64,000 nt of DNA, taken from a virus (Duplodnaviria; Caudoviricetes). Shown in pieces: positions 8,902 to 64,000 of the stretch (positions are counted from its first letter, which is position 1; each line of letters opens with the position of its first letter). A program made the position numbers and the translations under genes. Below the pieces are notes generated by a model. That model did not search any database and had not been told where the DNA came from. It was given only the letters and a program-made list of their open reading frames with translations. The stretch lies in IMG/VR virus record IMGVR_UViG_2728368993_000001, positions 50,818 to 114,817 of that record, one strand, 5' to 3'.

Positions 8902-9867
8902 TTACATATTCGCGTTAAGTGATAGCTTTCCTGCTATATATGTGGATATTTCTTCAGAAACAAATGAATTATTTCCCTGTTCCTGCACCTCATACCATTT
9001 TACATCCATTTTATTACGAAACCAAGTAAGTTGACGCTTAGCGTAGCGTCGTGAATTTTGTTTTAATGCTTCAACTGATTCATCGATCGTTAACCTATCA
9101 TCGAAGTAATCGTATAATTCCTTATATCCAATTGCCTGTATCGACTGACAATCTCTCAAACCTTGTTCATGAAAGCTCTTTACTTCTTCCATTAATCCCT
9201 GTTCCACCATAACATCAACGCGGTGGTTAATCCGCCGATAAAGTGCTTCACGGTTCATCGTCAAGCCGATAAGAGCTGTATCATACTTTAATTCGGATGT
9301 TTGCTTTTCGAGTTGATTAGACATCGTGATTCCTGTGCAATAATAAATTTCCAACGCTCGAATAATGCGCCTAATATTGTTAGGATGAATTCTCTCAGCA
9401 CTTTCAGGGTCAATTGACCGAAGCTTCTCAATAAGAGGTTCAATTCCATCTGTTTCCACAATAGATTCTAGCCTTTTTCTATATTCTAAATTAGAAGGGG
9501 CCTCTGAGAATTGATAGTCATAAATTACAGATTGAATGTACAAACCTGTACCTCCAACAATAATCGGCAGTTTACCACGCTTCTGAATATCTGCAATTGC
9601 CTGATTCGCTTGTTCTTGAAAATCAGCCGCACTAAATGATTCATTTGGTTCTTTAATATCCAGCAGAAAGTGAGGGATGCCCTCCATTTCTTTAGGTGTT
9701 ATTTTGGCTGTTCCGATATCCATCCCTTTATAAACTTGCATAGAATCTCCACTTATAATTTCACCATTAAAACGCTTCGCCATTTCTATACTCAGTTTTG
9801 TTTTCCCAACTGCTGTCGGGCCGATAATGACAAGTAACTTATTGTTCTCTTGTTCCAAAACATTCAC
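8902..9867 (-). CDS. miaA: tRNA dimethylallyltransferase
   Basis: GPTAVGKT, DSMQVY, GGTGLY, YAKRQLTWF. Confidence 0.98.
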   Translation of the reverse strand: MNVLEQENNKLLVIIGPTAVGKTKLSIEMAKRFNGEIISGDSMQVYKGMDIGTAKITPKEMEGIPHFLLDIKEPNESFSAADFQEQANQAIADIQKRGKLPIIVGGTGLYIQSVIYDYQFSEAPSNLEYRKRLESIVETDGIEPLIEKLRSIDPESAERIHPNNIRRIIRALEIYYCTGITMSNQLEKQTSELKYDTALIGLTMNREALYRRINHRVDVMVEQGLMEEVKSFHEQGLRDCQSIQAIGYKELYDYFDDRLTIDESVEALKQNSRRYAKRQLTWFRNKMDVKWYEVQEQGNNSFVSEEISTYIAGKLSLNANM

Positions 9868-10142
9868 TGCCTTATTTAAGTTTTACTTTTCGTACGTTTA
9901 AAGCAGTCAAACATCATTCATCATAGACAAATGATAAATCGTTTATACCTATTAAACGCACGTAAAGTTATTTTCTCCAGACCGCATACACTAAATTAGT
10001 CTTACCTTTATAAACTACATCACACGTTTGATTTACGACTTTCATAATATTTCTTGGTCTTTCGATTTACGTTTATACATTAAGACTAACATAAATTTTT
10101 GTATATGGACAGACACCAACTTTCACTTTCGGACAGAAGAAA

Positions 10143-10162
10143 TGTGGTCAATTAAGTGGTCA
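10143..10162 (+). other. Integrase arm-type repeats (attL region)
   Basis: TGTGGTCA-ATTA-AGTGGTCA; same motif as 2460-2478. Confidence 0.6.
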
Positions 10163-10283
10163 CGTGTACGTTGATGGCACTTAGATAAATACATCATACC
10201 GCCCGTTTATTACAAGAGCTTCGCAAAATTTCGGATTACTTCACTTCCCTCTTTTTTGGCGTGTTTCTTCTATATAACATAGA

Positions 10284-10514
10284 TTGCAAACAATCTTAAA
10301 AGAAAACGGAATTAAACAGGGATTTATTGCTGATAAAGCAGGTGTCTCGCAAGGGACTTTCAGTTTAATTGTAAGGGGGAAATCAGTTCCTACTTTACCT
10401 GTAGCAATTAGGATATCAAGAGTTGTTGGAAAATCAGTTGAGGAATTATGGGGTGACCAAGCTTTCAGGGGTTTGAAGCCAAATGAAATTATTAAACAAA
10501 CCAATTGCCATTAG
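10284..10514 (+). CDS. XRE/Cro-type HTH protein (start uncertain)
   Basis: GIKQGFIADKAGVSQGTFSLIVRGKSVPTL. Confidence 0.8.
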   Translation: MQTILKENGIKQGFIADKAGVSQGTFSLIVRGKSVPTLPVAIRISRVVGKSVEELWGDQAFRGLKPNEIIKQTNCH

Positions 10515-11059
10515 TTTTTCTTGTTCAACGAATTACCTCATCATAGAAATATGGATACTTCTCTGACTTTATATGTACCTACATCTTTTTCTCCATATTT
10601 GCGGAATCTTTACAGAACTTATGAGTAAGACCGTTTATGATATCAATCGTAACCCAATCATTTTCATTAAATGTTTTTCGGCAATCCCTGCACTATGGGG
10701 TAGAGTCAGGGAAATGCGGATTTACAACGTTGATTGACTTGAGCCCTCTGTGGGTACAATTTATCCTGAAGCCTGAAGCAGTTTTCCCATCAGGCAACGA
10801 GCATATCTACCACTCTTTCGCTTACTGTCCTTGAAGTTTGGTCTGGAAGAAGCACATTTCCATACTAAACTTCAATGTTGTTTCTTTCTCCTGTTACCCA
10901 AGTCCATTTACTCATACCTTTGAATACGTTGAATACTATAAAAAATAACTGTAGATAATGTTTCCACAAATTTATAAATCTGGTCATTTTTGTATTATTA
11001 CATTGAATACTGTAGATAAGGGCAGATTAGTTGAACGAGAAATACATATCGCAACAATA

Positions 11060-11080
11060 AAACTCGCCGAATGGGCGAGT
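11060..11080 (-). terminator. Probable terminator of the MTase-HEPN gene
   Basis: AACTCGCC-GAATG-GGCGAGTT hairpin next to an A tract. Confidence 0.6.
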
Positions 11081-11152
11081 TCTTTACGTAGCTTTACTAC
11101 TTCTTTACTTTTTAACCTTTTAGGTTTGCATCTGTCATCTCATTCCAAAACC

Positions 11153-12940
11153 TTATTCTTCTCCTCTTTTTAAAAAGTCAGGATGAAGCATTTCAAGAAA
11201 ATTCAACAGTAATCGCTTTTCAAAAATAATGATGGCTCTACACTGATCCGCTGTTTTAATCGGGATATACTCCTTATGAGCGATTGTATTGCGATAAGTA
11301 ACTATTTTTTCCAATTGCTCTTTTAAAATTCTTTTTTCCCTAGATTGGAAGATGGCAGCATCCTCTTTTAAAATTCCAATCTCTTCAACAATTTCTTTTA
11401 TGGTAATGGAATCACCAAACCATTCCCAGCCATCAAATAATATATGAAGGATAGAACCAAAGGTAAAGAGTCTGATTTTTAAGGAATTTTTGGTCTTAAA
11501 TACCATAGTGTTCGGCCATTTATTAAGTTTAGACTTCCCTATATTAATCTTACAGTATTCTTCGATTGGTTGATGGATTTTGCAATAGAATTCAAATTCA
11601 AGGGCTTTTGTTAAATTAATGACGGCTGGTGAAAAATCAAGGGTTTCTCTGAATGCTTCATGATCCATACTTTTATAAATAAATTCTGATGTAATGATAA
11701 ATTGTTTTGTATCAGGTTCTAAAAATACCCAATAATCCCCAAAGAAATCGAATAGTTCCTTCTCAATTTCTTTAATTTGCTCTTTTGGTATTTTTGTGTG
11801 GAACTTGTTGATGTTTAACACCCAATCTTCAATTCGCTGTATACTTTCTTCTGTTGAACAATCCTCTAATTCCAAGAGTTCTCGGAGTCTTCCTAAATTA
11901 TTAGACAAACGTTTATATTCATTTTGAAGGGCAGTTATTTGAATATAACTCTTTAGAATATTTCTGTATGAAAAATCCTTTACCGGCATGGAGTCCAAGG
12001 CATCATTGGTAATTATACTGAATGGACAGCTGTAACTGTTCAATCTCTCCTTTGATACTTTAATGGCCTCTTCTGAGGAGTCGATTCCAATCCAACGCCT
12101 GCCCATGTTTCCTGCAGCCACTAAAGTACTGCTGGAACCTGAAAAAGGATCCAAGATGACCTCATCAGGATGAGAGCCCATTTTGATAACCCTTTCCATT
12201 AGGGCCAAAGGTAGTTGTCCAGCATAATTAGTTATTTTTTCATGTGGAAGGGTTCTCATGTAAATATCGCCCCAGTCAGAACCAACCTCTTTTTCCTTTT
12301 CGTAATATTTTAAGGATGGGCTTCCTGTACGAGGATGGTAGTAAATGAGTCCTTCTTTATCAAGTTGATTTAGCTTTTCTTCGCTGTACTTCCAATAAAG
12401 TCGCTCCGTAGGTGTTACGCCTTTCCAGGTGAATTTCCGGTTGCCACTTAATTCTAGAGGAGTAAACAAAGTAACGGTAGTAAAGCGACCAACTTTGTCT
12501 TCTAGACGGTATTGTTTTTGTTCCTCTGTTGTAAGTGGCCGGGTAATTTTGTTTAAATTATACTTCCCGGAGTTGCTGTAAATTAATAGAGTTTGATGGT
12601 CAGGACGAAGTGATTTGGTGTTGCCAAAAAACACGTGTTTGAGTTTAATTTCTAACGGCTGTTCCTCCTGCTCAAAAACTTGGTCTAAAATAAATCTAAA
12701 ATTAATAGAGGAGGCTGGAATATGATAAAAGAATACTAGCCCATCTTCTTTTAAGACCCTTCTAATTTGCTGAAAGACTTTGGAATAATATTCTGATATT
12801 ACTTCTAGCAATCCATCCGTTTTACTCATCCAATCTCCTAAATAGGCAGGTGGATCTAAGAACACAAGTGAAGCAACCCTTCCATCCATTCTCTCCAAGA
12901 CTTTTAACGAATCTGCCCAAAACAAAGCGTTTTCATGCAT
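11153..12940 (-). CDS. N6/N4 DNA methyltransferase-like domain (degenerate) fused to a C-terminal HEPN-like domain
   Basis: DPPA (motif IV), DPFSGSS (motif I), GRRWIGID; coiled coil; LDFSPAVINLTKALE and RNTIAH (Rx4H). Confidence 0.8.
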   Translation of the reverse strand: MHENALFWADSLKVLERMDGRVASLVFLDPPAYLGDWMSKTDGLLEVISEYYSKVFQQIRRVLKEDGLVFFYHIPASSINFRFILDQVFEQEEQPLEIKLKHVFFGNTKSLRPDHQTLLIYSNSGKYNLNKITRPLTTEEQKQYRLEDKVGRFTTVTLFTPLELSGNRKFTWKGVTPTERLYWKYSEEKLNQLDKEGLIYYHPRTGSPSLKYYEKEKEVGSDWGDIYMRTLPHEKITNYAGQLPLALMERVIKMGSHPDEVILDPFSGSSSTLVAAGNMGRRWIGIDSSEEAIKVSKERLNSYSCPFSIITNDALDSMPVKDFSYRNILKSYIQITALQNEYKRLSNNLGRLRELLELEDCSTEESIQRIEDWVLNINKFHTKIPKEQIKEIEKELFDFFGDYWVFLEPDTKQFIITSEFIYKSMDHEAFRETLDFSPAVINLTKALEFEFYCKIHQPIEEYCKINIGKSKLNKWPNTMVFKTKNSLKIRLFTFGSILHILFDGWEWFGDSITIKEIVEEIGILKEDAAIFQSREKRILKEQLEKIVTYRNTIAHKEYIPIKTADQCRAIIIFEKRLLLNFLEMLHPDFLKRGEE

Positions 12941-13724
12941 AGATTTCCGTCCTTTTACTGTTTTTGTCTAGTTAATAGTTTACTATTGATAATAGATTTG
13001 ATTAAGGTCAAATGCAAGTGTTTCCAGTGCTACTCCCTCTATATAATTCCTGCCTGATGCTTCCGCTTAGCTGGGCATATATCCGGATGGTTTCACTTTT
13101 TTCATGACAGAAAAACTTGTATTGCTCACGTTAAATCCTTTTTTTATGATATTGTTAGGTAAATTGATGTTCTTTCCGGTCTCTTATTACCTGCTTTGAT
13201 AGGATTAACGAACAAACTAAAAAGTTTTAGAAGGAAGCATTCTTTGCAAGAATGTGAGGAAATTCACTTAAACTAATGGATGCGTTAGTTGAAGAATAAA
13301 GAATAAAAAAAGTTTATTTCCTCAAACTGGAAACCGGCTTTTTTTATGGGTTGAGACTCCCTTAGCGTTGTAAATTCGCATTTCCCTGACTATATATTTG
13401 AACTTAGTTTCATTAAACCTACTTCTTTTTTAAGGGATTCAATTTATTAGTTCTATAATCCTCCCTATTTACAAATACTTCATAAATCTGTGTTGCTAAA
13501 TGTCCTGCTGCTCTTTTAAGAGTTGTATCATATACCTCAGCTGGAACTGCTTTGCATCGAAGTAAGTTAGTTGGTGGGCATAAGGGGTAACGATAATCTT
13601 AATTATTTGGATCTACAATATGTGGACTTTAGATAGTATTCCTATATTCTTAATTTAAGTAACCCCTTTTCTTCAAGAAAGTGGTTACTTAAATGGAATA
13701 TTAAAATTATAATTACACAGCCCC

Positions 13725-14660
13725 TTAAAAATCCCCAGTACTTGACAGACGGCTTACTTTCTCATTAACTTTAGCCTGAATACTCTCTCCAATACCCTTG
13801 ATTAATTCAATTTTTTGGTTAATCGACCAGTTTTCATTAGAGATATCGTTACCATATCTATCTATAATATTCGGAATAGCTTCTAGCGCAACCATTAAAA
13901 CAACTTTTGCAGTTAATTCTTCAGTGGGATCCATAAAATAATCCCCTAAGTAATTTTCAAAATTTATATCAATAGATCCACTTAGCTTTAGAAAAAGCTC
14001 AATCGTATGATTTTTATACTCTATAACAGGTTTTACATATGTGACTTCTTCGTTTTCAAAAAGAAACGCAAGGGTACTTAGTGCATTCATAATTCGGTTT
14101 CCGGATCCAATCACTTCAGCTAATTGATCATGTGATGACCCCTTAAATCCCACAATTTTCTTTATAACTAGATGTGAAGATTCATCGATAGACTCATCAG
14201 TAGAGTTTAACACTTTAGAAATCATCCAGATAAATAAATCCTCGGTAATTTGAAAGGGATTACTTTTAATTTCTCCTTGACCAGTATAATTATTTATTTT
14301 TCTTAAAATAGTTTTTGTAGTATCATTATTAGATTTATTAGTAATATACTGTGTTCTTACATTATCAGAATAAACAATTATGTAACCTACTATTGAGTAT
14401 ATTCTTGAGGAACGCATTTCATTGGTTTCTTCTCCAGTTCTAACTCTTTCATATTCATATTTTATTATATTGTAATTAATCTCTGCGCCATTCAACTCTA
14501 TCACTTTATTATTTTCAAATGACTTTGTAATATTGTATCGCAAATTTTCATTAGTTAATGGATCTGTAACTGAAATGTTCCAATCATCGTAATTTAACAT
14601 ATTTGATATTATTTCTTCCATCGTTTTCTCTGTATTATCTGACCACCTAGATAAAGACAC
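13725..14660 (-). CDS. Hypothetical protein, gene 3 of a low-GC three-gene moron
   Basis: 311-aa ORF starting 5 bp after the upstream stop. Confidence 0.8.
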   Translation of the reverse strand: MSLSRWSDNTEKTMEEIISNMLNYDDWNISVTDPLTNENLRYNITKSFENNKVIELNGAEINYNIIKYEYERVRTGEETNEMRSSRIYSIVGYIIVYSDNVRTQYITNKSNNDTTKTILRKINNYTGQGEIKSNPFQITEDLFIWMISKVLNSTDESIDESSHLVIKKIVGFKGSSHDQLAEVIGSGNRIMNALSTLAFLFENEEVTYVKPVIEYKNHTIELFLKLSGSIDINFENYLGDYFMDPTEELTAKVVLMVALEAIPNIIDRYGNDISNENWSINQKIELIKGIGESIQAKVNEKVSRLSSTGDF

Positions 14661-14665
14661 ATTAA

Positions 14666-15298
14666 TTACCCCTTTATTTCAATTTTCAAACCTTGAAATT
14701 TAATTCTTCTTAAAGGATTTCTGTTCCCCTTTATTAGCTCAGGAATAATTTCAATTTTATTTTTTTCTTCAGCGTTGCCATTACCAATTAAATCAATAGC
14801 TATTTCCTTGGTTTGATTGATTTCTTTTTGCTGATTGAACATTTTTTTCAAATTAAAAACATATTGATTGTGTTCATCTAATGAGGTCAAATAAGGTCGG
14901 CCTTTTATTTGCATATCTAGCCAATCTGGATAATTTAATACTATTTCAGCAGGAATGTTTTCCCTTTTCCCTTTAGCTGTTATTTCTAATATTATTTTTT
15001 TATTTTCATTATGTTTTATCTTTACATTTTTAAGTTTATCTTCTGTATAAAATAATTTAATATCAATTGTAGTTTTTAAAGAAGAATAAAAATACATGAT
15101 TGTAGATACAATTATTGAGAAAATAAAATTATAAATACCCAAATCCATAAACCATAGAAGTTTATCATTTTGTGAGTTAATGAACTTTTCTGCAAGTGAT
15201 ATTTCAAAATAAAGTGGAATTATTGTGAATATAAGTACTATTAGATTTTTCAGATAATTTCTAAATTCTTTTTCAATATCTTTTTTTAATTCTGTCAT
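14666..15298 (-). CDS. Hypothetical two-TM protein, gene 2 of the moron
   Basis: Two hydrophobic N-terminal helices; ATGA overlap with gene 1. Confidence 0.8.
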   Translation of the reverse strand: MTELKKDIEKEFRNYLKNLIVLIFTIIPLYFEISLAEKFINSQNDKLLWFMDLGIYNFIFSIIVSTIMYFYSSLKTTIDIKLFYTEDKLKNVKIKHNENKKIILEITAKGKRENIPAEIVLNYPDWLDMQIKGRPYLTSLDEHNQYVFNLKKMFNQQKEINQTKEIAIDLIGNGNAEEKNKIEIIPELIKGNRNPLRRIKFQGLKIEIKG

Positions 15299-15768
15299 GA
15301 TAAATAATTATCTAAAACTTTCTCAAGAATTCCTTTAAAAATTAAATTTAATTTATTACCCATTATCAATCCGTTTGAATAAACAGTATACGGATTTTTG
15401 TTATAATATAATTCAATGTTAAAAATATCTATTGAATTATTATCTAGAGCCCATTTTAAGAGTTCCTTTAAATTAATAAATTGTAAACGATCTTTTCTAA
15501 TTTTTAACACTAAATTTTTTACATCAATTTTTAAATTTTCGTCTGTATTATCTGTGAAGTTAATACCTAATATGTATCCTTCGTTCATAATAATCGCATT
15601 TAAAATTTCTATCATTAATTCTGAATTAATGATTACTTGTTTATAACCTTTGGCTTTCATTCTTAATATAACTTCATGATATTTTTCTACATCTGGATTA
15701 TAGGATTCCGTGCAAATATTCAGTTTATCATTAGAATATTTACGGAATATTTTTCCATATTCATCCAT
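15295..15768 (-). CDS. Hypothetical protein, gene 1 of the moron
   Basis: 157-aa ORF with GAGGAG RBS. Confidence 0.8.
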   Translation of the reverse strand: MDEYGKIFRKYSNDKLNICTESYNPDVEKYHEVILRMKAKGYKQVIINSELMIEILNAIIMNEGYILGINFTDNTDENLKIDVKNLVLKIRKDRLQFINLKELLKWALDNNSIDIFNIELYYNKNPYTVYSNGLIMGNKLNLIFKGILEKVLDNYLS

Positions 15769-15880
15769 AAAAAAACTCCTCTAAAAATCTATAGTATGTT
15801 ACTTTAAATAATTTCCTATTCCAACTTGTAAAGTATACTACCCCAATGGTTTATTTTAAACCTAATTTGCTAAATTAATT

Positions 15881-15908
15881 TATTCTACAACAAACTCATT
15901 TATCCTTT
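15881..15908 (-). promoter_or_regulatory. SigH-like promoter for the three-gene moron
   Basis: AAAGGATAAA...GTAGAAT. Confidence 0.55.
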
Positions 15909-15992
15909 TTCTGAATTCTTTATTTTATATTAACAGATTTACGTTTCCCCTCTCAAACAAGAGAAGGGCTTATTTATTTTACAAAAATTTTA

Positions 15993-16020
15993 CAAGGACT
16001 TTTATCCTAATCGTCAAATA
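15993..16020 (+). promoter_or_regulatory. SigH-like promoter
   Basis: CAAGGACTTT...GTCAAAT upstream of the 16063 ORF. Confidence 0.5.
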
Positions 16021-16062
16021 TAAATGGTGTAGGCTTCTAACTATTTATATAGGAGTGATTAA

Positions 16063-16338
16063 ATGGATAAGATTGGAGAACATTTGTATTATTTATGGGA
16101 ATTGATTTGGTATGGGTACGTAATTCATTTTTGGGATTGGTTTTGGTATTACCGCAGAGGGAAAATAAAATTTACTGTCTATGATTTCGGAGATTATTAT
16201 AATGTGTCGGCTTCGAACGGAAGATTGATTGTTTACAATGCTTACGGAAGTACAATAGAAGAGGCAAAGAAAATGGCGTTGTGGAGATTGCGAAACTCTA
16301 ACAGTGATAAAAGTAGCGCCCCTATTCGTATAGAATAA
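16063..16338 (+). CDS. Hypothetical aromatic-rich moron protein
   Basis: AGGAG RBS; opposite strand to the lysis genes. Confidence 0.7.
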   Translation: MDKIGEHLYYLWELIWYGYVIHFWDWFWYYRRGKIKFTVYDFGDYYNVSASNGRLIVYNAYGSTIEEAKKMALWRLRNSNSDKSSAPIRIE

Positions 16339-16424
16339 GGGCTTTTACGTAAATCTCAGGGGAACATTATTATATTTCCCCTTCAACTATATGAACAAAC
16401 ATTAATTGAGTAAGATTTTTTATT

Positions 16425-17222
16425 TTATTTCCCTGTGATATAACCTCGGTCAATAGCAACGTATACCAACTCTAGAGCTTGAGCGACAGTTAATTCTCCC
16501 TTAGCTTGCTTCTCACGCCACTCTTTTCCTAGCGCCGGGTCTTTATTCTCGAAACGTGATAATACTCGTAATACTGCGTTAGCTGCTTCTTGCGTGCTCG
16601 GCTTAAATGGTTGACCCATTTCATCTTCCTCCTTTTCAACTGTTGCTGGTCTAACGATTGCCTTTGCGCTTAAATTCAAAAACTTGGCCACACCTCGTGC
16701 ATAGGCAGCAGCCATATCCTTGATGAAATTGTTATTCTTTAGCAATTCAGCATCTTTGGAGTCAATATAAGCTATTTCAGTTAACACGGCAGACATGTTA
16801 GTTTGACGGACAACGGCAAGATTACCTTGTTTACTATCATCACCATGGGGGCCTAAACCGTATTTCTTAGCAGTAGCAAGAGCCTCCGCGTTGACTAGGC
16901 TTTGAAGTTTCACGGAACCAGCACTCGGTTTCGTGTAGATATAAGACTCGTAGCCTGTCCCTCCTCCAGCGTTCACATGGTTAGAGATAAATACATCCGC
17001 ATTGGCTCTATTGGCAATATCAGCTCGTTCAGATAGTTCTAAAAAAACATCTATGGTCCGTGTAAGTGAGGTTTCATGCCTTGTATAATTTGCATCAAGG
17101 TATCTTTTCATTTCTTTTGAGATATCCAATGTGATATTTTTCTCTTGTAAGCCATTTCCAACTGCCCCGGGATCTTTTCCTCCGTGTCCTGAGTCAATAA
17201 TAATTTTCACCATATTAATCAC
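16425..17222 (-). CDS. Endolysin, N-acetylmuramoyl-L-alanine amidase (Amidase_3)
   Basis: DSGHGGKDPGA, EKNITL, FISNHVNAGGG, AVLTE. Confidence 0.95.
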   Translation of the reverse strand: MINMVKIIIDSGHGGKDPGAVGNGLQEKNITLDISKEMKRYLDANYTRHETSLTRTIDVFLELSERADIANRANADVFISNHVNAGGGTGYESYIYTKPSAGSVKLQSLVNAEALATAKKYGLGPHGDDSKQGNLAVVRQTNMSAVLTEIAYIDSKDAELLKNNNFIKDMAAAYARGVAKFLNLSAKAIVRPATVEKEEDEMGQPFKPSTQEAANAVLRVLSRFENKDPALGKEWREKQAKGELTVAQALELVYVAIDRGYITGK

Positions 17223-17484: not shown

Positions 17485-17757
17485 TCAATGTCCTCCTTTT
17501 AAAACGTTATAAAAAATAGCGATAGCCCCGCCGATTATACCGGTGCTGATCGCAGTAACAATAGCTGCAGTTATCGTCCTTTTTATCCAAGTAGTGTTAT
17601 CATCAATTTTATTGAGTTTTTCAGCCATTGAGATAATCTGTTGATCATGCCTATCTGATGTTCTTTCTAAAACATTGACCCTATTTTCAAGTGATTTAAC
17701 ATCACTCTTAACTTCTGTTATCTCTTTATCATGCGTGTTCATTGCAGTTCCCTCCAA
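17485..17757 (-). CDS. XhlA-family lysis protein
   Basis: Coiled coil, KIDDNTTWIKRTI, C-terminal TM. Confidence 0.88.
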   Translation of the reverse strand: MEGTAMNTHDKEITEVKSDVKSLENRVNVLERTSDRHDQQIISMAEKLNKIDDNTTWIKRTITAAIVTAISTGIIGGAIAIFYNVLKGGH

Positions 17758-36926: not shown

Positions 36927-37970
36927 TTAATTAACTTTCGCAATAAAAATATTATCGATTGTTTCAAAGCTTGGTAAAATGATCATACTGACGATGGTTT
37001 CAACGTTTACTGGATGAGGCTCTTTAATAGTGGTAACAGCTACACCAGTATTCACAATAGAAACATCTGCAGTCGCATTACCAGCCATCAAGTCAGACTC
37101 CTCAGGTGTTGTTCCATAATACGTACTCCCTAGGTTGCCATCAGGAATCAACGTGAAATAATCATCTGGATAGAAATTATGCAGCGATCCGTCCTCAGCA
37201 CGGTATTTCTTGTTATAAACAGCAACAGAAAGTCCTAACTTAGCAGATAGGTATTGTTTTAACATTGACTCAGTCATGATAATGTTTTGTCCCCCCAGAG
37301 GGTTCATATCAAGACGGATACTCTTATGCTCAAGCAACGAGGTAAAAGTTTTTCGAGACACGATTGCATTAGTCGGACGAACACCCGTATTATCTTCCAC
37401 TGTGTCCATCCAGGTTAATATATCTTGAATTGGAGTTGAACCTTGATCGCTCCATTGTGCACCTGCAGTTAATGTTTCCTTGTGATCATTTTTCATCTTG
37501 TAATCATAATCGTAATCTAAACGATTGGCCGTAATGCGGATTTTTCCTGTAGAGAGCAATTGCATAATCATTCTCTCTGGCTGCACCATTGCTCCATTTA
37601 CAAGATTAGTGATGTCATCATAAATATTATTGATAACCGGCATAATCATGCTATCAAGGTTAGATGTAGCAAGACGATTCAATTCTTGGCGATCTTTTTC
37701 CCCAATCCTCATCGCTTCACGGAAGAAAGGCATCTCAGTTTGTACTTTATCGAATCCAATACGGTCTCTAAGAGTTGCCTTAGAATCGAACTCAGATGGC
37801 ATAAGGGCGACTGGTAACCCCTTTGAACCCTTAATCCAGCTCAAGTCCAGACCAAGCTGCTTCTTGGCAGGGAAAAGAACGGAACCTAGATATGGAATGG
37901 TGTTTGAAGGGTTAGTCTGGTAATAGGTTGCAATATTATTTGAATTCACTAAATCAAAGATTGTTGGCAT
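36927..37970 (-). CDS. Major capsid protein (E family)
   Basis: LFPAKKQLG, MPFFRE, YGTTPEE. Confidence 0.92.
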   Translation of the reverse strand: MPTIFDLVNSNNIATYYQTNPSNTIPYLGSVLFPAKKQLGLDLSWIKGSKGLPVALMPSEFDSKATLRDRIGFDKVQTEMPFFREAMRIGEKDRQELNRLATSNLDSMIMPVINNIYDDITNLVNGAMVQPERMIMQLLSTGKIRITANRLDYDYDYKMKNDHKETLTAGAQWSDQGSTPIQDILTWMDTVEDNTGVRPTNAIVSRKTFTSLLEHKSIRLDMNPLGGQNIIMTESMLKQYLSAKLGLSVAVYNKKYRAEDGSLHNFYPDDYFTLIPDGNLGSTYYGTTPEESDLMAGNATADVSIVNTGVAVTTIKEPHPVNVETIVSMIILPSFETIDNIFIAKVN

Positions 37971-41470: not shown

Positions 41471-42814
41471 TTAGAGACCCAATAATTTCTTATCCATAGA
41501 GCCAAGTTTATTTTTGTTAAATAGAATCGTATTCACAAAATATCGATCACCATCAAGTTGGTGGTCATTTTGTTTAATCGGCTTATCTTCACCGCGATCA
41601 GCAGCCTTTTCATCCCAAATATAAGAAGAAAACTCACGGAAAGTTTCTACGCATCGATCATTGTATTTAATCAGACCATCATTGAGGGCATTACCAACAT
41701 TACGAATTCCATCGATGACCTCATTCTTTGCCTTAATCACTTTAAATCCGTTTTTCTTCAAAAGGGCAATAAAAGAAGCAGCCGATGGATCTACAATCAC
41801 ACCTTTAAGATTTTTTATATCATCTGTAAACGCCTGTAGATCCTCTAAATACTCTTGGTCTGTTTTTTGCTTACTCTTTTGTCGACCATCGTAATGGTAT
41901 TCCTTGTCCTTGTACCAAAGTTCATTGGAAAGACCCCACAATCCAAAGGTTGTCGGGTTCTGCGTACCATAATCAATACTGACATAGCACTTGGAGTATG
42001 GTCTTTCTTGTGTAGTCACGACATGCTTGTCCTTATTAAACATGTCATAAATAACGCCCTCAGCAAGCACCCATAAGCCTAGAATGAACCGCTGATAGAA
42101 GATGCCCTTATACATCCTCTTGTAACGCTCTTTGGTCTTAGCTGTCAGGGAAAGGTTATCATCCATCGTGAAATGGATATGTAGCATGTTCTTATCTTTT
42201 AGTTGGTCCAGATATTCCACCTTGAACCAATGATATGGACCAGCTGGGTTGCAGTTGAACCAAAACTTTGCCCCATCAACAGAACAACGAGCTGTTGCCT
42301 GATTAACAAATGATTGTGGCATCAATGCAACTTCGTCAAAGAACATGCCAGCAAGCGTAATCCCCTGTATAAGATCCTGTGAACCTTCATCCTTACCACC
42401 AAAAATATAAAAGTAATTCGTTTTACCTTTATAGGAGATGGTCAAGAAATTATCTGCTCGATGGTCCTTAACTCTATAACCTCGCGCCTTTAACATTCGC
42501 TTCAATGGAGTAATAACGTTACGTCGAAAAGAACCAATCGTCTTTCCGGCCATACCTAAGTTCACTTCATCGAACGTATCCATTCCCCACATAACGTAGG
42601 ATAGGGACATAACGACTGTTTTCCCAGCACGGACGGAACCATCACAAATAACCCCGTCTTTATCTTTGACAGGGGAACCATTTCGCCACCAGGTTAAAAC
42701 TTGCTTTTGCTTTACTGAGAAAGGTTTAAAGGTAAATGGTGCTGGCTTTTTCTTCTTAGCTGGCTTACTCGTCAGGAAAGCAAACGACTTAGCTTCAATC
42801 TTCGTTTGTGTCAT
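41471..42814 (-). CDS. Terminase large subunit (PBSX family)
   Basis: DGSVRAGKT, FFDEVAL, IDYGTQNP, DHQLD. Confidence 0.96.
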   Translation of the reverse strand: MTQTKIEAKSFAFLTSKPAKKKKPAPFTFKPFSVKQKQVLTWWRNGSPVKDKDGVICDGSVRAGKTVVMSLSYVMWGMDTFDEVNLGMAGKTIGSFRRNVITPLKRMLKARGYRVKDHRADNFLTISYKGKTNYFYIFGGKDEGSQDLIQGITLAGMFFDEVALMPQSFVNQATARCSVDGAKFWFNCNPAGPYHWFKVEYLDQLKDKNMLHIHFTMDDNLSLTAKTKERYKRMYKGIFYQRFILGLWVLAEGVIYDMFNKDKHVVTTQERPYSKCYVSIDYGTQNPTTFGLWGLSNELWYKDKEYHYDGRQKSKQKTDQEYLEDLQAFTDDIKNLKGVIVDPSAASFIALLKKNGFKVIKAKNEVIDGIRNVGNALNDGLIKYNDRCVETFREFSSYIWDEKAADRGEDKPIKQNDHQLDGDRYFVNTILFNKNKLGSMDKKLLGL

Positions 42815-43682
42815 TATTCCACACCTCCGAAGTTGTAGCATCTAAAGCGGCTTCAAAACCATCATCCTCATATTCTTCTTCTTCATTCGCTCCAAAGACT
42901 TTATGATGAGAAATTTTAAGTTTCTCTTCCTCAACTTGACGCTTGAATTTGTCTGGGAACAAGTCGAAGTATAAGGACAATTTATCCAAGGCCTTCATCT
43001 TGTCAGCAAGCTTAACCGATATACCGTCTTTGCCCTTTTTAACTTCTGTAATTAGAGTCCCATCAACTTCATTGGCATTCTTGAAATCAACATAGTTGTA
43101 GCTATACATCACAGGTTCGCCGTTTTCATCTAATATAGGTTCGCCAGTTAATGCATTGACTTCCGGCTGTTCCTTTTGCCCAAAATCAACAAAGTCTGTA
43201 ATGTCAGCAAATGCTATCTTTACCCACTTATTTAGAACGTCTTGAGCATCAATAAACAGATTTCCTGTCATTTCTTTCTTCATTCGCTGAATAAACTCTT
43301 TCACCCTAACATTCCCTAACAGCCTTGGACCTTGCACATGAGCTGTATCTAGAGAATACCCAGCCTTAATTGCTGATTGAGTAGCATTGAATGACTTAAC
43401 GTAATGAAAACAAAAAAGCCTTTGTTTATCAGTAAGTCTATCTGAATCAAGCTCATCTTCTTTTATTATTTCTGGCTCGCTTTGTGGGGATGCATCCTTC
43501 TTTTTTAGGGTTGCAACCTTTTGATTTTTGGTTGCATCCTTTTTCGTTGGATTCCTCGACCAACCTTCACGGCTTTTTCTGCTTTTCAAGGTACCAATTT
43601 TCACATCATGCTTATCAGCAAGAGCCTGCAAAGTAATCTTAGAAGTTTCATATTCATTTCTTATTTCATCCCAATTAGGCAT
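42795..43682 (-). CDS. Terminase small subunit
   Basis: N-terminal HTH, LTDKQRLF, NATQSAIKAGYS, KLADKMKAL. Confidence 0.93.
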   Translation of the reverse strand: MPNWDEIRNEYETSKITLQALADKHDVKIGTLKSRKSREGWSRNPTKKDATKNQKVATLKKKDASPQSEPEIIKEDELDSDRLTDKQRLFCFHYVKSFNATQSAIKAGYSLDTAHVQGPRLLGNVRVKEFIQRMKKEMTGNLFIDAQDVLNKWVKIAFADITDFVDFGQKEQPEVNALTGEPILDENGEPVMYSYNYVDFKNANEVDGTLITEVKKGKDGISVKLADKMKALDKLSLYFDLFPDKFKRQVEEEKLKISHHKVFGANEEEEYEDDGFEAALDATTSEVWNNDTNED

Positions 43683-50784: not shown

Positions 50785-50862
50785 CATTAGGCAAATTTTA
50801 CGAAAGTAAAAGACGCAAAGCCACGGACCTAAGGTTTTTAACTATGGTAGCCGGTTGCCAAG
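50785..50862 (+). ncRNA. c-di-GMP-I (GEMM) riboswitch
   Basis: GGCAAA-TTTTAC-GAAA-GTAAAA-GACGCAAAGCCACGGACCTAAG...ATGGTAGCCGGTTGCC. Confidence 0.9.
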
Positions 50863-60412: not shown

Positions 60413-60859
60413 GTGGATATTCTAGGTAAAAGAATAAAACAATTAAGAGAAAGTAAAAAACAAACAGATAGTAAGTACACCCAAGGGTATATAGCGAATT
60501 TAATCGGTGTTGCTAGAACTACATATACAGCTTATGAAAACGGGACTAAGCAACCATCTCTTGAGACTGTTAATAAGATTGCGGATGTATTTAGCGTTTC
60601 TACAGATTTTTTACAAGGACGAACGAACAATCCTACTCAATTGGGCCACGCTGAAAAAGATGAAAAAGACATCGCAAAGCGTATGGAAGAAATAAAAAAA
60701 GACCTATCTAGTCAAGATGGTCTCATGTTTTCTGGTGAACCCTTAAGTGAAGAAGCAGTAGAATCACTTATGGAAGCAATGGAGCACATGGTTCGTCAAA
60801 CTCAACGAATCAATAAGAAGTACATTCCTAAGAAGTACAGAGATAAAGAAACCGAATAG
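60413..60859 (+). CDS. ImmR/CI-like repressor
   Basis: XRE HTH; GLMFSGEPLS C-terminal motif; followed by ImmA. Confidence 0.92.
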   Translation: MDILGKRIKQLRESKKQTDSKYTQGYIANLIGVARTTYTAYENGTKQPSLETVNKIADVFSVSTDFLQGRTNNPTQLGHAEKDEKDIAKRMEEIKKDLSSQDGLMFSGEPLSEEAVESLMEAMEHMVRQTQRINKKYIPKKYRDKETE

Positions 60860-60877
60860 GAATGCGAGGCGAATCAA

Positions 60878-61318
60878 GTGGGTTGGATTAAAGAAAAGGT
60901 TATTGAACTTACGAAGAAATATGATACTAGAGATCCATTCGAACTTGCTTCATGCTTAAATGTGTTTGTGTTCGAATGGGACTTTCACGAAGAAATCAAC
61001 GGGGTATACAAGTATGACAAACGAAACAAGTACATATACATCAATTCCAATTTAAATATAAATAATAAATTGTTTACTTGTGCTCATGAGCTAGGCCATG
61101 TTGTACTCCATCCTAGAGCCAACACCCCTTTCATGAGAAAAAATACACTATTATCCGTGGATAAGATCGAAAAAGAAGCTAATCGATTTGCTGTTGAATT
61201 GCTGGTTCCTGACGAAGCTTTGTATGACTACCAAGATAGCAATCTATCAATACATGAAATATGTGAGCAATACTCAGTTCCTAAGGAGTTAGCGTGCATA
61301 AAAAATTTTAACAATTAA
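60878..61318 (+). CDS. immA: ImmA/IrrE metallopeptidase anti-repressor
   Basis: CAHELGH, EKEANRFAVELL. Confidence 0.92.
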   Translation: MGWIKEKVIELTKKYDTRDPFELASCLNVFVFEWDFHEEINGVYKYDKRNKYIYINSNLNINNKLFTCAHELGHVVLHPRANTPFMRKNTLLSVDKIEKEANRFAVELLVPDEALYDYQDSNLSIHEICEQYSVPKELACIKNFNN

Positions 61319-62830: not shown

Positions 62831-64000
62831 TTGTGGAATATATTGGCATACTTCCGGAAAGTGAAAGCAAAAAATAAAAAAGGATATACTTGGGCATTTA
62901 CGATTGAAATTGGGATTGATCCTGAAACAGGAAAAAGAAAACAACTCACACGAAGAGGTTTTGAAACTAAAAAAGATGCAGAGATGGCTTCAGGAAAGAT
63001 TCAACAGGAAATAGAGAATGATGAATTTATTCAACCGAAAAAGGTACTTGTAAAAGATTTTATGGTCGACTGGCTAAATAATATTGCTAAACAAAATGTT
63101 AAGCCTTCTACTTTTGCTGGTTATAAAGGGGTTGTTGCTAAAAGGATCATTCCTATATTCGGGGCTTTAAAACTAGAACAACTAAAACCTATTATGATTA
63201 CAAAATATTATAATTCACTCTTAGAAGAAGGATTATCTGAGGAATATATTGATTATATACATTCTATTCTTAAAACATCCTTAAATACTGCTGTAAAATG
63301 GGAATTCATTAAAACAAATCCTGTTGTAAAAGCTGATAAACCTTCTCTTAAGAAAAAAAGCGTTTCAACATGGAGTATAGAAGAATGTAATGCATTTCTC
63401 TCCAAAGCGAACGAAGACAGCAAACCTCATTTTTATATTTTGTATTTATTAGCAATCTATACTGGAATGAGACGAGGAGAAATATTAGGATTGAAATGGA
63501 GCGATATTATTTTTACCCAAAAGAAAATAAGTATTGCTAGGACTCTATATTATATCCACGATCAAGGTATTATTGAACAATCGACCAAAAACGACGGATC
63601 AACTCGTGTAATTTCTATATCTGATATGGTAATAAACGAACTAAAAAAACATCAATTGTGGCAGAAAGAACGTAAACTAGAATATGGTATCCCCTATTCA
63701 GAAGATGGATATATAACAGCTAATCACAAAGGCGAAGCATTGAATCCAAATTACGTTTATAATCATTTTGTAAAAATGACTAAGAAAGCAGGATTAAAGA
63801 AAATACGCTTCCATGATTTACGTCATACACATGCTACAATTATGCTGCAGCTAGGAGAACATCCGAAAATCGTCTCTGAGAGATTAGGACATTCTTCAAT
63901 CGAAATGACGATGAATACCTATTCTCACGTTACACCAGATATGCAGCAAGATTCTTCTGATCGCTTTGAAGAGGCCTTAAAAAACGCGAAAAATCTATAA
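62831..64000 (+). CDS. Tyrosine integrase (intact; start may be TTG 62843)
   Basis: GMRRGE, RFHDLRHTH, LGHS...TYSH. Confidence 0.97.
   Translation: MWNILAYFRKVKAKNKKGYTWAFTIEIGIDPETGKRKQLTRRGFETKKDAEMASGKIQQEIENDEFIQPKKVLVKDFMVDWLNNIAKQNVKPSTFAGYKGVVAKRIIPIFGALKLEQLKPIMITKYYNSLLEEGLSEEYIDYIHSILKTSLNTAVKWEFIKTNPVVKADKPSLKKKSVSTWSIEECNAFLSKANEDSKPHFYILYLLAIYTGMRRGEILGLKWSDIIFTQKKISIARTLYYIHDQGIIEQSTKNDGSTRVISISDMVINELKKHQLWQKERKLEYGIPYSEDGYITANHKGEALNPNYVYNHFVKMTKKAGLKKIRFHDLRHTHATIMLQLGEHPKIVSERLGHSSIEMTMNTYSHVTPDMQQDSSDRFEEALKNAKNL

Follow-up and report, generated by a model that had tools for sequence, protein, structure and literature searches.

What might a protein do that joins an altered DNA methyltransferase (MTase) domain to a HEPN domain? 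The gene that raises this question lies in a 64,000-nucleotide stretch of viral DNA (positions 50,818 to 114,817 of the IMG/VR record IMGVR_UViG_2728368993_000001, hereafter the window), where the list of open reading frames (ORFs) holds a single long and uninterrupted frame on the minus strand (11153..12940; ATG start, stop codon at 11153-11155) encoding 595 amino acids (aa). Judged on its sequence, we lean towards reading this fusion protein as a single-polypeptide abortive-infection or superinfection-exclusion protein, in which an impaired MTase-like domain would be the sensor and a HEPN RNase the effector. Translation of the window bore out both the frame and the four motifs (DPPA, YAGQLP, FSGSSS and RNTIAH) that an initial annotation, made from the letters alone, had picked out. 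Two of the checks suggested there were carried out: motif conservation in homologues showed canonical MTase motifs in the relatives, deviant ones in the fusion protein and an invariant HEPN motif, and AlphaFold modeling of the domains returned confident MTase and HEPN folds.

In its predicted structure, the N-terminal part (residues 1-310; 12011..12940, on the minus strand like all parts of the gene given below) is a beta-class N6/N4 DNA-methyltransferase-like fold with a target-recognition-type insert. The Pfam model N6_N4_Mtase (PF01555) covers residues 25-298 (E 3.8e-30, 105.9 bits, cut-off 26.7). An AlphaFold2 (AF2) model of residues 1-330, folded with 120 relatives, reached a mean predicted local distance difference test score (pLDDT) of 90.1 and a predicted template modeling score (pTM) of 0.86. 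Its best Foldseek match was the Type III subunit EcoP15I Mod (E 9.8e-18; TMq 0.71, chain A), and M.RsrI, TTHA0409, CcrM, M.MboIIA and M.BceJIV were further top matches. A single-sequence search of the PDB matched solely methyltransferases, spanning residues 218-335, and NCBIfam gave methyltransferase similarity alone for the fusion protein, with every model below its cut-off. The permuted motif order of the beta class is present: motif IV at residue 29, then the insert, a motif X-like element at 239 and motif I at 266.

Full-length fusions number three in all across the databases searched. In addition to the window protein these are an orthologue with the source name Neobacillus vireti (P0002; 79% identity) and a gene of Evansella sp. 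AB-P1 (P0121, locus L011; 45% identity). We compared the MTase motifs in 121 proteins, namely the 120 listed relatives, which include the fusion protein, and P0121. The aromatic fourth residue of motif IV is needed for MTase activity. It was found, as (D/N/S)PP(F/Y/W/H), in 113/121 proteins, the motif being absent in 4/121; the four proteins with a non-aromatic residue were the fusion protein and P0002 (DPPA; residues 29-32, 12845..12856), P0121 (DPPM) and a further relative, P0103 (DPPV). The aromatic residue is thus missing in all three fusion orthologues (A, A, M). After DPP, the alignments show a gap in the fusion protein, a catalytic-loop deletion that removes three residues conserved at 86-95%. 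The family sequence YPTQKP, present in 99/121, is replaced by YAGQLP (residues 239-244; 12209..12226), which is confined to the fusion protein and P0002; both T241 (conserved at 97%) and K243 (98% of 118 relatives) are lost. Motif I reads FSGSSS (residues 266-271; 12128..12145), compared to FCGCGT in relatives, with the second Gly changed to Ser. This last change seems mild, since the second-Gly position is already Ala in 13/121 relatives (CGCAT in 11, CGCAS in 2). Of the altered motifs put forward in the initial annotation, motif IV and YPTQKP are the true outliers.

A wider comparison gave the same picture of a degenerate methyltransferase domain that had been drawn from the motifs. We defined 86 columns conserved at ≥85% in 118 relatives, a set drawn from relatives dominated by one subfamily; the fusion protein keeps 47/86 of them, P0002 49 and P0121 45, compared to a median of 82.5 and a 5th percentile of ≈60 among the relatives. 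By our own tally of the conserved-column table, the catalytic N-terminal half (residues 9-116) keeps 15/39 columns, the insert (residues 121-225) 8/9, and the region of motifs X and I-III 24/38. Lost within residues 9-116 are F32, the deleted loop, H72, D74, Y80, W100 and D116. The last five of these, as well as T241 and K243, are each 92-98% conserved in relatives, and all are replaced in the fusion protein. The erosion is selective and uneven along the domain. Methyl transfer has probably been lost or strongly reduced, while the fold and the recognition insert would persist, and perhaps cofactor binding also.

The MTase-like domain is followed by a helical, coiled-coil-like linker (residues 325-381; 11798..11968). 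Long helices predicted by DSSP on the full-length model, at residues 325-358 and 363-381, match the coiled coil noticed earlier, and structural matches to the region are merely generic long helices. From residue 390 on, pLDDT in the full-length AF2 model is mostly 92-98 in 10-residue blocks. The C-terminal domain (residues 385-590; 11171..11788), examined with AF2, VIA-align and homologue alignments, is convincing as a predicted all-alpha HEPN fold with an intact Rx4H catalytic motif (RNTIAH, R550 to H555; 11276..11293). With VIA-align, for which a Z score below ≈13 may be generic for helical domains, the best matches to residues 384-587 were RnlA (Z 10.2, root-mean-square deviation 3.3, 137 residues aligned) and LsoA (Z 10.1). 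Further matches were 3mfn (Z 9.6), the AF_0298 HEPN protein (8.1), Roquin (8.1), AbiA (7.9), the HEPN toxin 7ae2 (7.8), sacsin HEPN (7.6), TT1696 (7.6) and SO_3166 (7.5). The matches lying mainly on the C-terminal domain are labeled as HEPN proteins or are ones that we take to be such, save 3mfn and 2jpu. In the Atlas, the nearest named clusters were likewise of the RnlA/LsoA type (TM 0.56/0.58).

A HMMER full-database search with residues 320-595 returned 155 representative proteins at E ≤0.001, 13 of them at 1e-10 or better; among the matches listed, the matching part lies nearly always at or near the C-terminus. R550 and H555 were the sole invariant columns in alignments of 80 and of 107 sequences. 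They were invariant in 104/104 non-orthologous homologues, in which N551 was conserved at 91% and A554 at 95%. In the same 104 homologues, 26 columns are conserved at ≥70%, and the fusion protein keeps 24/26, including W404, D435, S437, E448, E450, G495, N551, A554 and C567. The HEPN identity is convincing because the fold matches combine with the invariant RNxxAH, and the assignment of a C-terminal HEPN domain with Rx4H made in the initial annotation holds. The HEPN effector also looks intact: the invariance of R550 and H555 and the 24/26 columns count in favor of an RNase effector in the reading that we prefer.

To which HEPN family does this domain belong? In Pfam, the fusion protein reached no curated HEPN family model above cut-off. 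HEPN_RiboL-PSP matched residues 510-569 below threshold (E 2.1e-4, 21.7 bits compared to a cut-off of 28.4), and the fusion orthologues gave weak matches to HEPN_RiboL-PSP (E 1.2e-4) and MAE_28990 (E 4.5e-3). Pfam had no row at E ≤1 for DUF4145 (PF13643) and no match to HEPN_RnaseLS or to ATPase families, and a PDB sequence search with the 107-sequence C-terminal alignment gave only spurious linker coiled-coil matches and no HEPN entry. Within 80 homologues at E ≤0.1, HEPN_Swt1 was matched by 8, Hypoth_Ymh by 7 and DUF4145 by 4; at E ≤0.001, the DUF4145 match remained in 3/80. The domain appears to represent a HEPN family that has no curated model and lies near those of RnlA/LsoA, DUF4145 and Swt1-like proteins, with DUF4145 as a related neighbor rather than as its established family. 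N-terminal partners in the 80 homologues were the ResIII helicase (10), Sel1 (9), TPR_12 (5) and AAA_22 (4), and more rarely N6_N4_Mtase (2) and a Schlafen-type helicase (1). Judging from these architectures, the family seems to serve as a C-terminal effector behind sensor- or motor-type modules. The partner list given for DUF4145 in a section of the 2013 HEPN survey (PMC3710099) resembles it. A related HEPN domain (29.5% identity, E 2e-10) ends a 693-aa 'hypothetical protein' of the Priestia megaterium plasmid NZ_CP085421.1 (L017 4453-6534), whose neighbors are annotated as an AAA ATPase, a UvrD-helicase-domain protein, an HNH endonuclease, an exonuclease-domain protein and a DEAD/DEAH helicase; this setting looks like a defense island on a mobilizable plasmid.

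The two halves of the protein differ in how they are distributed. Sequence relatives of the MTase domain (173 at E ≤0.001) are fused MTase-effector proteins; by our own count among the 120 matches listed, 72 carry Mrr_cat and/or NA-iREase1, 11 HNH and 1 Schlafen AlbA_2. When a tree of the MTase domain was built by maximum likelihood, the three HEPN fusions grouped together (clade support 0.986), placed on a long branch with P0010 (DPPW, Schlafen AlbA_2) and P0103 (DPPV); after midpoint rooting, the tip distance is ≈2.1-2.2 compared to a median of 1.33. The nearest outgroup, P0010 (source name Armatimonas sp.), has a near-canonical DPPW and a Schlafen AlbA_2 domain at residues 381-514 (E 5.3e-15). 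P0103 is degenerate too (DPPV, FPGQLP) and has a tail of ≈110 aa with no family match. The effector thus appears to have been exchanged on a common MTase scaffold, and a fast-evolving sub-branch seems to couple this scaffold to RNase-type rather than DNase-type effectors.

The complete fusion is rare. A full-length match was found in 0/66 other genomes of the same taxonomic family, and the fusion in 0/400 other sampled genomes of the same order. Viral contigs gave one locus with merely a 69-residue MTase match and no fusion, and metagenome contigs gave 418 pattern hits with 0 relatives. Among phage records, 167 were matched, none with ≥80% coverage, and the C-terminal domain alone had no match in phage records and was found in one plasmid record. 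A profile of the three orthologues run against a set of 5.8 billion proteins returned 166 at E ≤1e-10; among the 120 matches listed, the window protein and P0002 were the only full-length ones. The Evansella orthologue is flanked by genes of a housekeeping kind and unrelated to it, for an epimerase, DUF6671 and DUF6407 proteins, a major facilitator superfamily transporter, UbiA and cytochrome oxidase, and this locus and the window have no neighbor in common. The absence of a conserved neighbor indicates that the fusion protein would be self-sufficient.

Where does the gene reside in the window? A 14-bp attachment (att) core at 10016-10029 has a second copy that lies outside the window, ≈80 bp from its right end (L015 899-912) and after the integrase gene. 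When window positions 9701-13800 were searched against the 4 kb following window position 63182, this repeat was the sole exact shared word of ≥14 bases between the end regions. The left copy lies between miaA and a prophage helix-turn-helix (HTH) gene and the right copy between the integrase gene and mutL; outside the repeats, the left flank carries miaA and hfq, and the right flank mutL. Because of the repeat and these flanking genes, we conclude that the window holds a prophage of ≈54 kb inserted between mutL and miaA. From right to left it encodes a tyrosine integrase (62831-64000, continuing past the window end), an HTH repressor with an ImmA-type peptidase (60413-61318), the large terminase (41471-42841), the major capsid protein (36927-37970) and a lysis cassette made up of XhlA (17485-17757), a small 70-aa ORF and Amidase_3 (16425-17222). 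A Bro-N protein is also encoded in its right part. The fusion gene is in the accessory region past the lysis genes, ≈1.1 kb inside the prophage end. Such a place, past the lysis cassette and close to the att core (1.1 kb) of a prophage equipped with integrase, repressor and ImmA, terminase, capsid and an XhlA-amidase pair, fits a defense protein. The defense role proposed in the initial annotation is consistent with this accessory position and with the sensor-type partners of the HEPN family.

None of the genes close by is an evident partner. No restriction nuclease was recognized next to the fusion gene from the family matches of its neighbors in Pfam, PADLOC, PHROGs and NCBIfam, in agreement with what had been noted at the outset, although one of the nearby ORFs with no family match may encode a nuclease of unfamiliar sequence; the genome has no further PF01555 gene. 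No antitoxin-like partner ORF was seen on the gene strand. Just inside the att core and convergent with the fusion gene is a 76-aa HTH_3 protein (10284-10514, plus strand; E 1.5e-8). Upstream of the fusion gene, a 785-bp stretch (12941-13724) has no ORF of ≥25 aa on the gene strand; such a length is unusual between prophage genes, and the stretch may hold a promoter, other regulatory sequence or the remains of a gene. Beyond it are three packed minus-strand ORFs (13725-15768; 157, 210 and 311 aa), with a 4-base overlap followed by a 5-base spacing. Their G+C content is 26%, whereas the fusion gene has 36% and the remainder of the prophage 37%. Together with a 91-aa ORF at 16063-16338, they had no Pfam or PADLOC match at E ≤1, save weak sub-threshold Pfam rows, and no PHROGs family at E ≤0.01; the three ORFs also gave no NCBIfam match above cut-off. 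The middle one has, by eye, hydrophobic stretches resembling membrane helices, and the 311-aa protein resembles large Bacillota 'hypothetical protein' clusters in the Atlas (scores 0.96-0.97). The three ORFs may constitute a second prophage accessory module. An operon uniting them with the fusion gene was rejected in view of the 785-bp ORF-free gap and their absence beside the Evansella orthologue. Scans of the region added little: promoter-like sites were no more common than in shuffled sequence (25 observed compared to a mean of 30.7), the terminator scan gave no terminator-like site beside the fusion gene, and a search of 9800-16500 against Rfam at E ≤0.1 gave 0 matches. The G+C content of 11153-12940 is itself uneven, 39.5% in the MTase part and 31.6% in the HEPN part, a split that fits modules with separate histories or merely a different amino-acid composition.

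How could such a protein work? The ancestor of the N-terminal domain would be the DNA methyltransferase part of restriction enzymes that fuse an MTase to a nuclease; the domain has lost the catalytic aromatic residue and the loop after it, but has kept its fold, most residues of the cofactor site and the recognition-type insert. An MTase scaffold that usually bears a DNase would thereby have gained an RNase effector and ceased to methylate. In the present protein, the MTase-like domain would act as a sensor or regulator, restraining the RNase through the helical linker until a phage-derived ligand binds; once activated, the HEPN RNase would cut host or phage RNA (tRNA, rRNA or mRNA) and thus halt translation. 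Candidate triggers are a foreign or unusual nucleic acid, a phage protein that targets MTases, or the loss of bound S-adenosylmethionine (SAM). Since a protein unable to mark host DNA could not rely on methylation to recognize self, a ligand specific to phages is a likelier trigger than DNA of a given sequence. Experimentally shown analogues of this general scheme are RAZR, HepS, Tha and PrrC/RloC (compared below), and the first three, as single-protein HEPN defenses, speak for this reading.

Several observations weigh against this reading. The MTase-like domain keeps the cofactor-site residues D264, F266, G268 and D287 (the last being the acid of motif II) and, within motif IV, D-P-P, R281 and W283 being kept also; P0121 has a canonical motif I (FAGFGT); and a tyrosine (Tyr33) directly follows DPPA. 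Given the kept residues and the P0121 motif, some residual or altered methyltransferase activity may persist, and part of the deficit in conserved columns could stem from distance rather than from loss of function. On the effector side, fold Z scores of 8-10 are within the range that is possibly generic for helical domains, and among the 25 PADLOC matches listed only the MTase half was recognized. With only three examples, conservation statistics within the fusion clade are thin. Finally, the Evansella copy has no evident mobile element, recognizable prophage or defense island within 10 kb on either side.

A first rival is an active methyltransferase of an unusual kind, which would methylate DNA or RNA as an orphan or to protect the prophage, with the HEPN domain as a second, independent or back-up function. 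The strong Pfam match and the retention of D29-P30-P31, D264, F266, G268 and D287 speak for this, as do the canonical FxGxG and the Lys of QKP in P0121, and Tyr33 might replace the missing aromatic residue. We nevertheless consider such an enzyme improbable: the motif IV residue that is aromatic in 113/121 relatives is so in none of the three fusions, the loop after motif IV with its 86-95% conserved residues is deleted, and H72, D74, Y80, W100, D116, T241 and K243 are all replaced. A comparable non-aromatic motif, EPPL, is found in METTL14, which is catalytically inactive. If the domain does not methylate but still binds SAM, as the kept cofactor-site residues and the lost base-flipping and catalytic residues would allow, it could be a metabolite sensor, the RNase being freed when a SAM-degrading phage enzyme depletes SAM. 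This seems very unlikely to us, since motif I is altered in 2/3 orthologues and the motif X-like YPTQKP in 3/3, and none of the papers searched bears on it.

Another rival keeps the sensor and changes what it senses. The pseudo-methyltransferase would mimic the target of anti-restriction DNA mimics or MTase inhibitors, whose binding frees the HEPN RNase. The prophage would then carry decoy (guard) immunity in one polypeptide, a non-methylating bait for anti-restriction proteins or SAM-destroying enzymes with an RNase in cis that kills or arrests the cell. Lost catalysis in a kept fold with a kept recognition insert is what a bait requires, and a non-methylating sensor could not tell self from non-self by methylation, which favors a trigger other than DNA; moreover, no cognate nuclease was recognized nearby and the gene is the sole PF01555 member of the genome. 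There is precedent in Ronin, where HsdS and HsdM without HsdR are paired with a small toxin that is fired by Ocr, ArdA and Aop1, as outlined in the preprint (bioRxiv 10.1101/2023.04.06.535777), and in PrrC, which reacts to T4 Stp in the account of the 2013 survey (PMC3710099). However, the known DNA-mimic anti-restriction proteins, so far as the cited accounts describe them, hit Type I restriction-modification (R-M) and BREX methyltransferases, whereas the present domain is beta-class and Type III Mod-like; in addition, a bait should mimic a common resident target, yet the genome has no such MTase. We therefore rate decoy immunity as a minority possibility, both in its general form and in the one-polypeptide prophage form. 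Least probable, in our view, is a protein with no defense role at all, whether an RNase for prophage maintenance (addiction-like) or regulation, or a remnant in decay. HEPN domains are known from toxin-antitoxin modules too, as the 2013 survey mentions (PMC3710099), and the extreme rarity of the gene speaks for this rival as well. Against it stand an intact frame of 595 codons, identities of 79% and 45% over three genera, the retention of all HEPN signature residues, the lack of an antitoxin-like same-strand partner ORF and an Evansella copy outside any recognizable prophage.

If the reading that we prefer, an impaired MTase-like sensor joined to a HEPN RNase, is true, it would illustrate the stepwise conversion of an R-M scaffold into an abortive-infection sensor, with the DNase first replaced by an RNase and catalysis then lost. 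Being a single gene, it would also be a compact system in which to learn what a pseudo-methyltransferase senses. The extreme rarity of the fusion protein, with three genes, restricts its general importance. Single-chain sensor-plus-HEPN defense proteins and R-M-derived decoys are both already known. Our literature searches did not find an MTase-like domain as the cis sensor of a HEPN RNase, although the supplementary tables of HEPN and BREX surveys may list such proteins. A passage of the 2013 HEPN survey states that R-M-associated HEPN domains are fused to nucleases, helicases and ATPases "but not to the methylases", and Table 1 of that survey records occasional methylase fusions for the DUF86 family (PMC3710099).

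Comparison with the closest known systems places the fusion protein between several of them. The fused MTase-nuclease proteins share a homologous N-terminal MTase (≈25-37% identity over 32-57% of the query, among the matches listed) followed by a C-terminal effector, the nearest branch being P0010 with its Schlafen-type domain; theirs is a canonical MTase with DPPF, YPTQKP and FxGxG and a mostly DNase-type effector, whereas the fusion protein shows DPPA, YAGQLP and FSGSSS, has lost the catalytic loop and ends in a HEPN domain of the RNase type. RnlA and LsoA (RNase LS) match residues 384-587 best in structure, but they have another N-terminal architecture; the fusion protein lacks an HEPN_RnaseLS match and has no antitoxin partner at this locus. 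Two prophage-borne HEPN defenses have been shown experimentally, the single-protein HepS (PMC13043305) and the HEPN-domain system Tha (PMC11087260); as described there, both resemble the present protein in being prophage HEPN defenses and differ from it in their N-terminal architectures. PrrC and RloC have a regulatory domain at the N-terminus and a HEPN RNase at the C-terminus, and are conceptually tied to R-M as a second line of defense, according to the survey text (PMC3710099). Regulation in them lies with an ABC ATPase, and a Type Ic R-M complex, encoded separately, keeps PrrC latent, whereas the fusion protein carries its R-M-derived domain in cis and has no ATPase match. RAZR (PD-T7-4) is an abortive-infection RNase made of a zinc finger and a DUF4145 HEPN domain, whose R and H are needed for defense in the experiments reported (PMC13017515). 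Like RAZR, the fusion protein is a single chain with an N-terminal sensor, small in RAZR, and a C-terminal divergent HEPN domain of the DUF4145 neighborhood; the sensor is a zinc ribbon in RAZR and an MTase-like domain here, and our protein has no DUF4145 match. Finally, Ronin, as presented in the preprint (bioRxiv 10.1101/2023.04.06.535777), similarly couples an R-M-derived methyltransferase module lacking a nuclease to a cell-killing effector. It does so with three genes (HsdS, HsdM and RonA), a Type I-derived module and a 61-aa membrane toxin, whereas the fusion protein brings together, in one polypeptide, a predicted beta-class Type III Mod-like fold and a fused HEPN effector.

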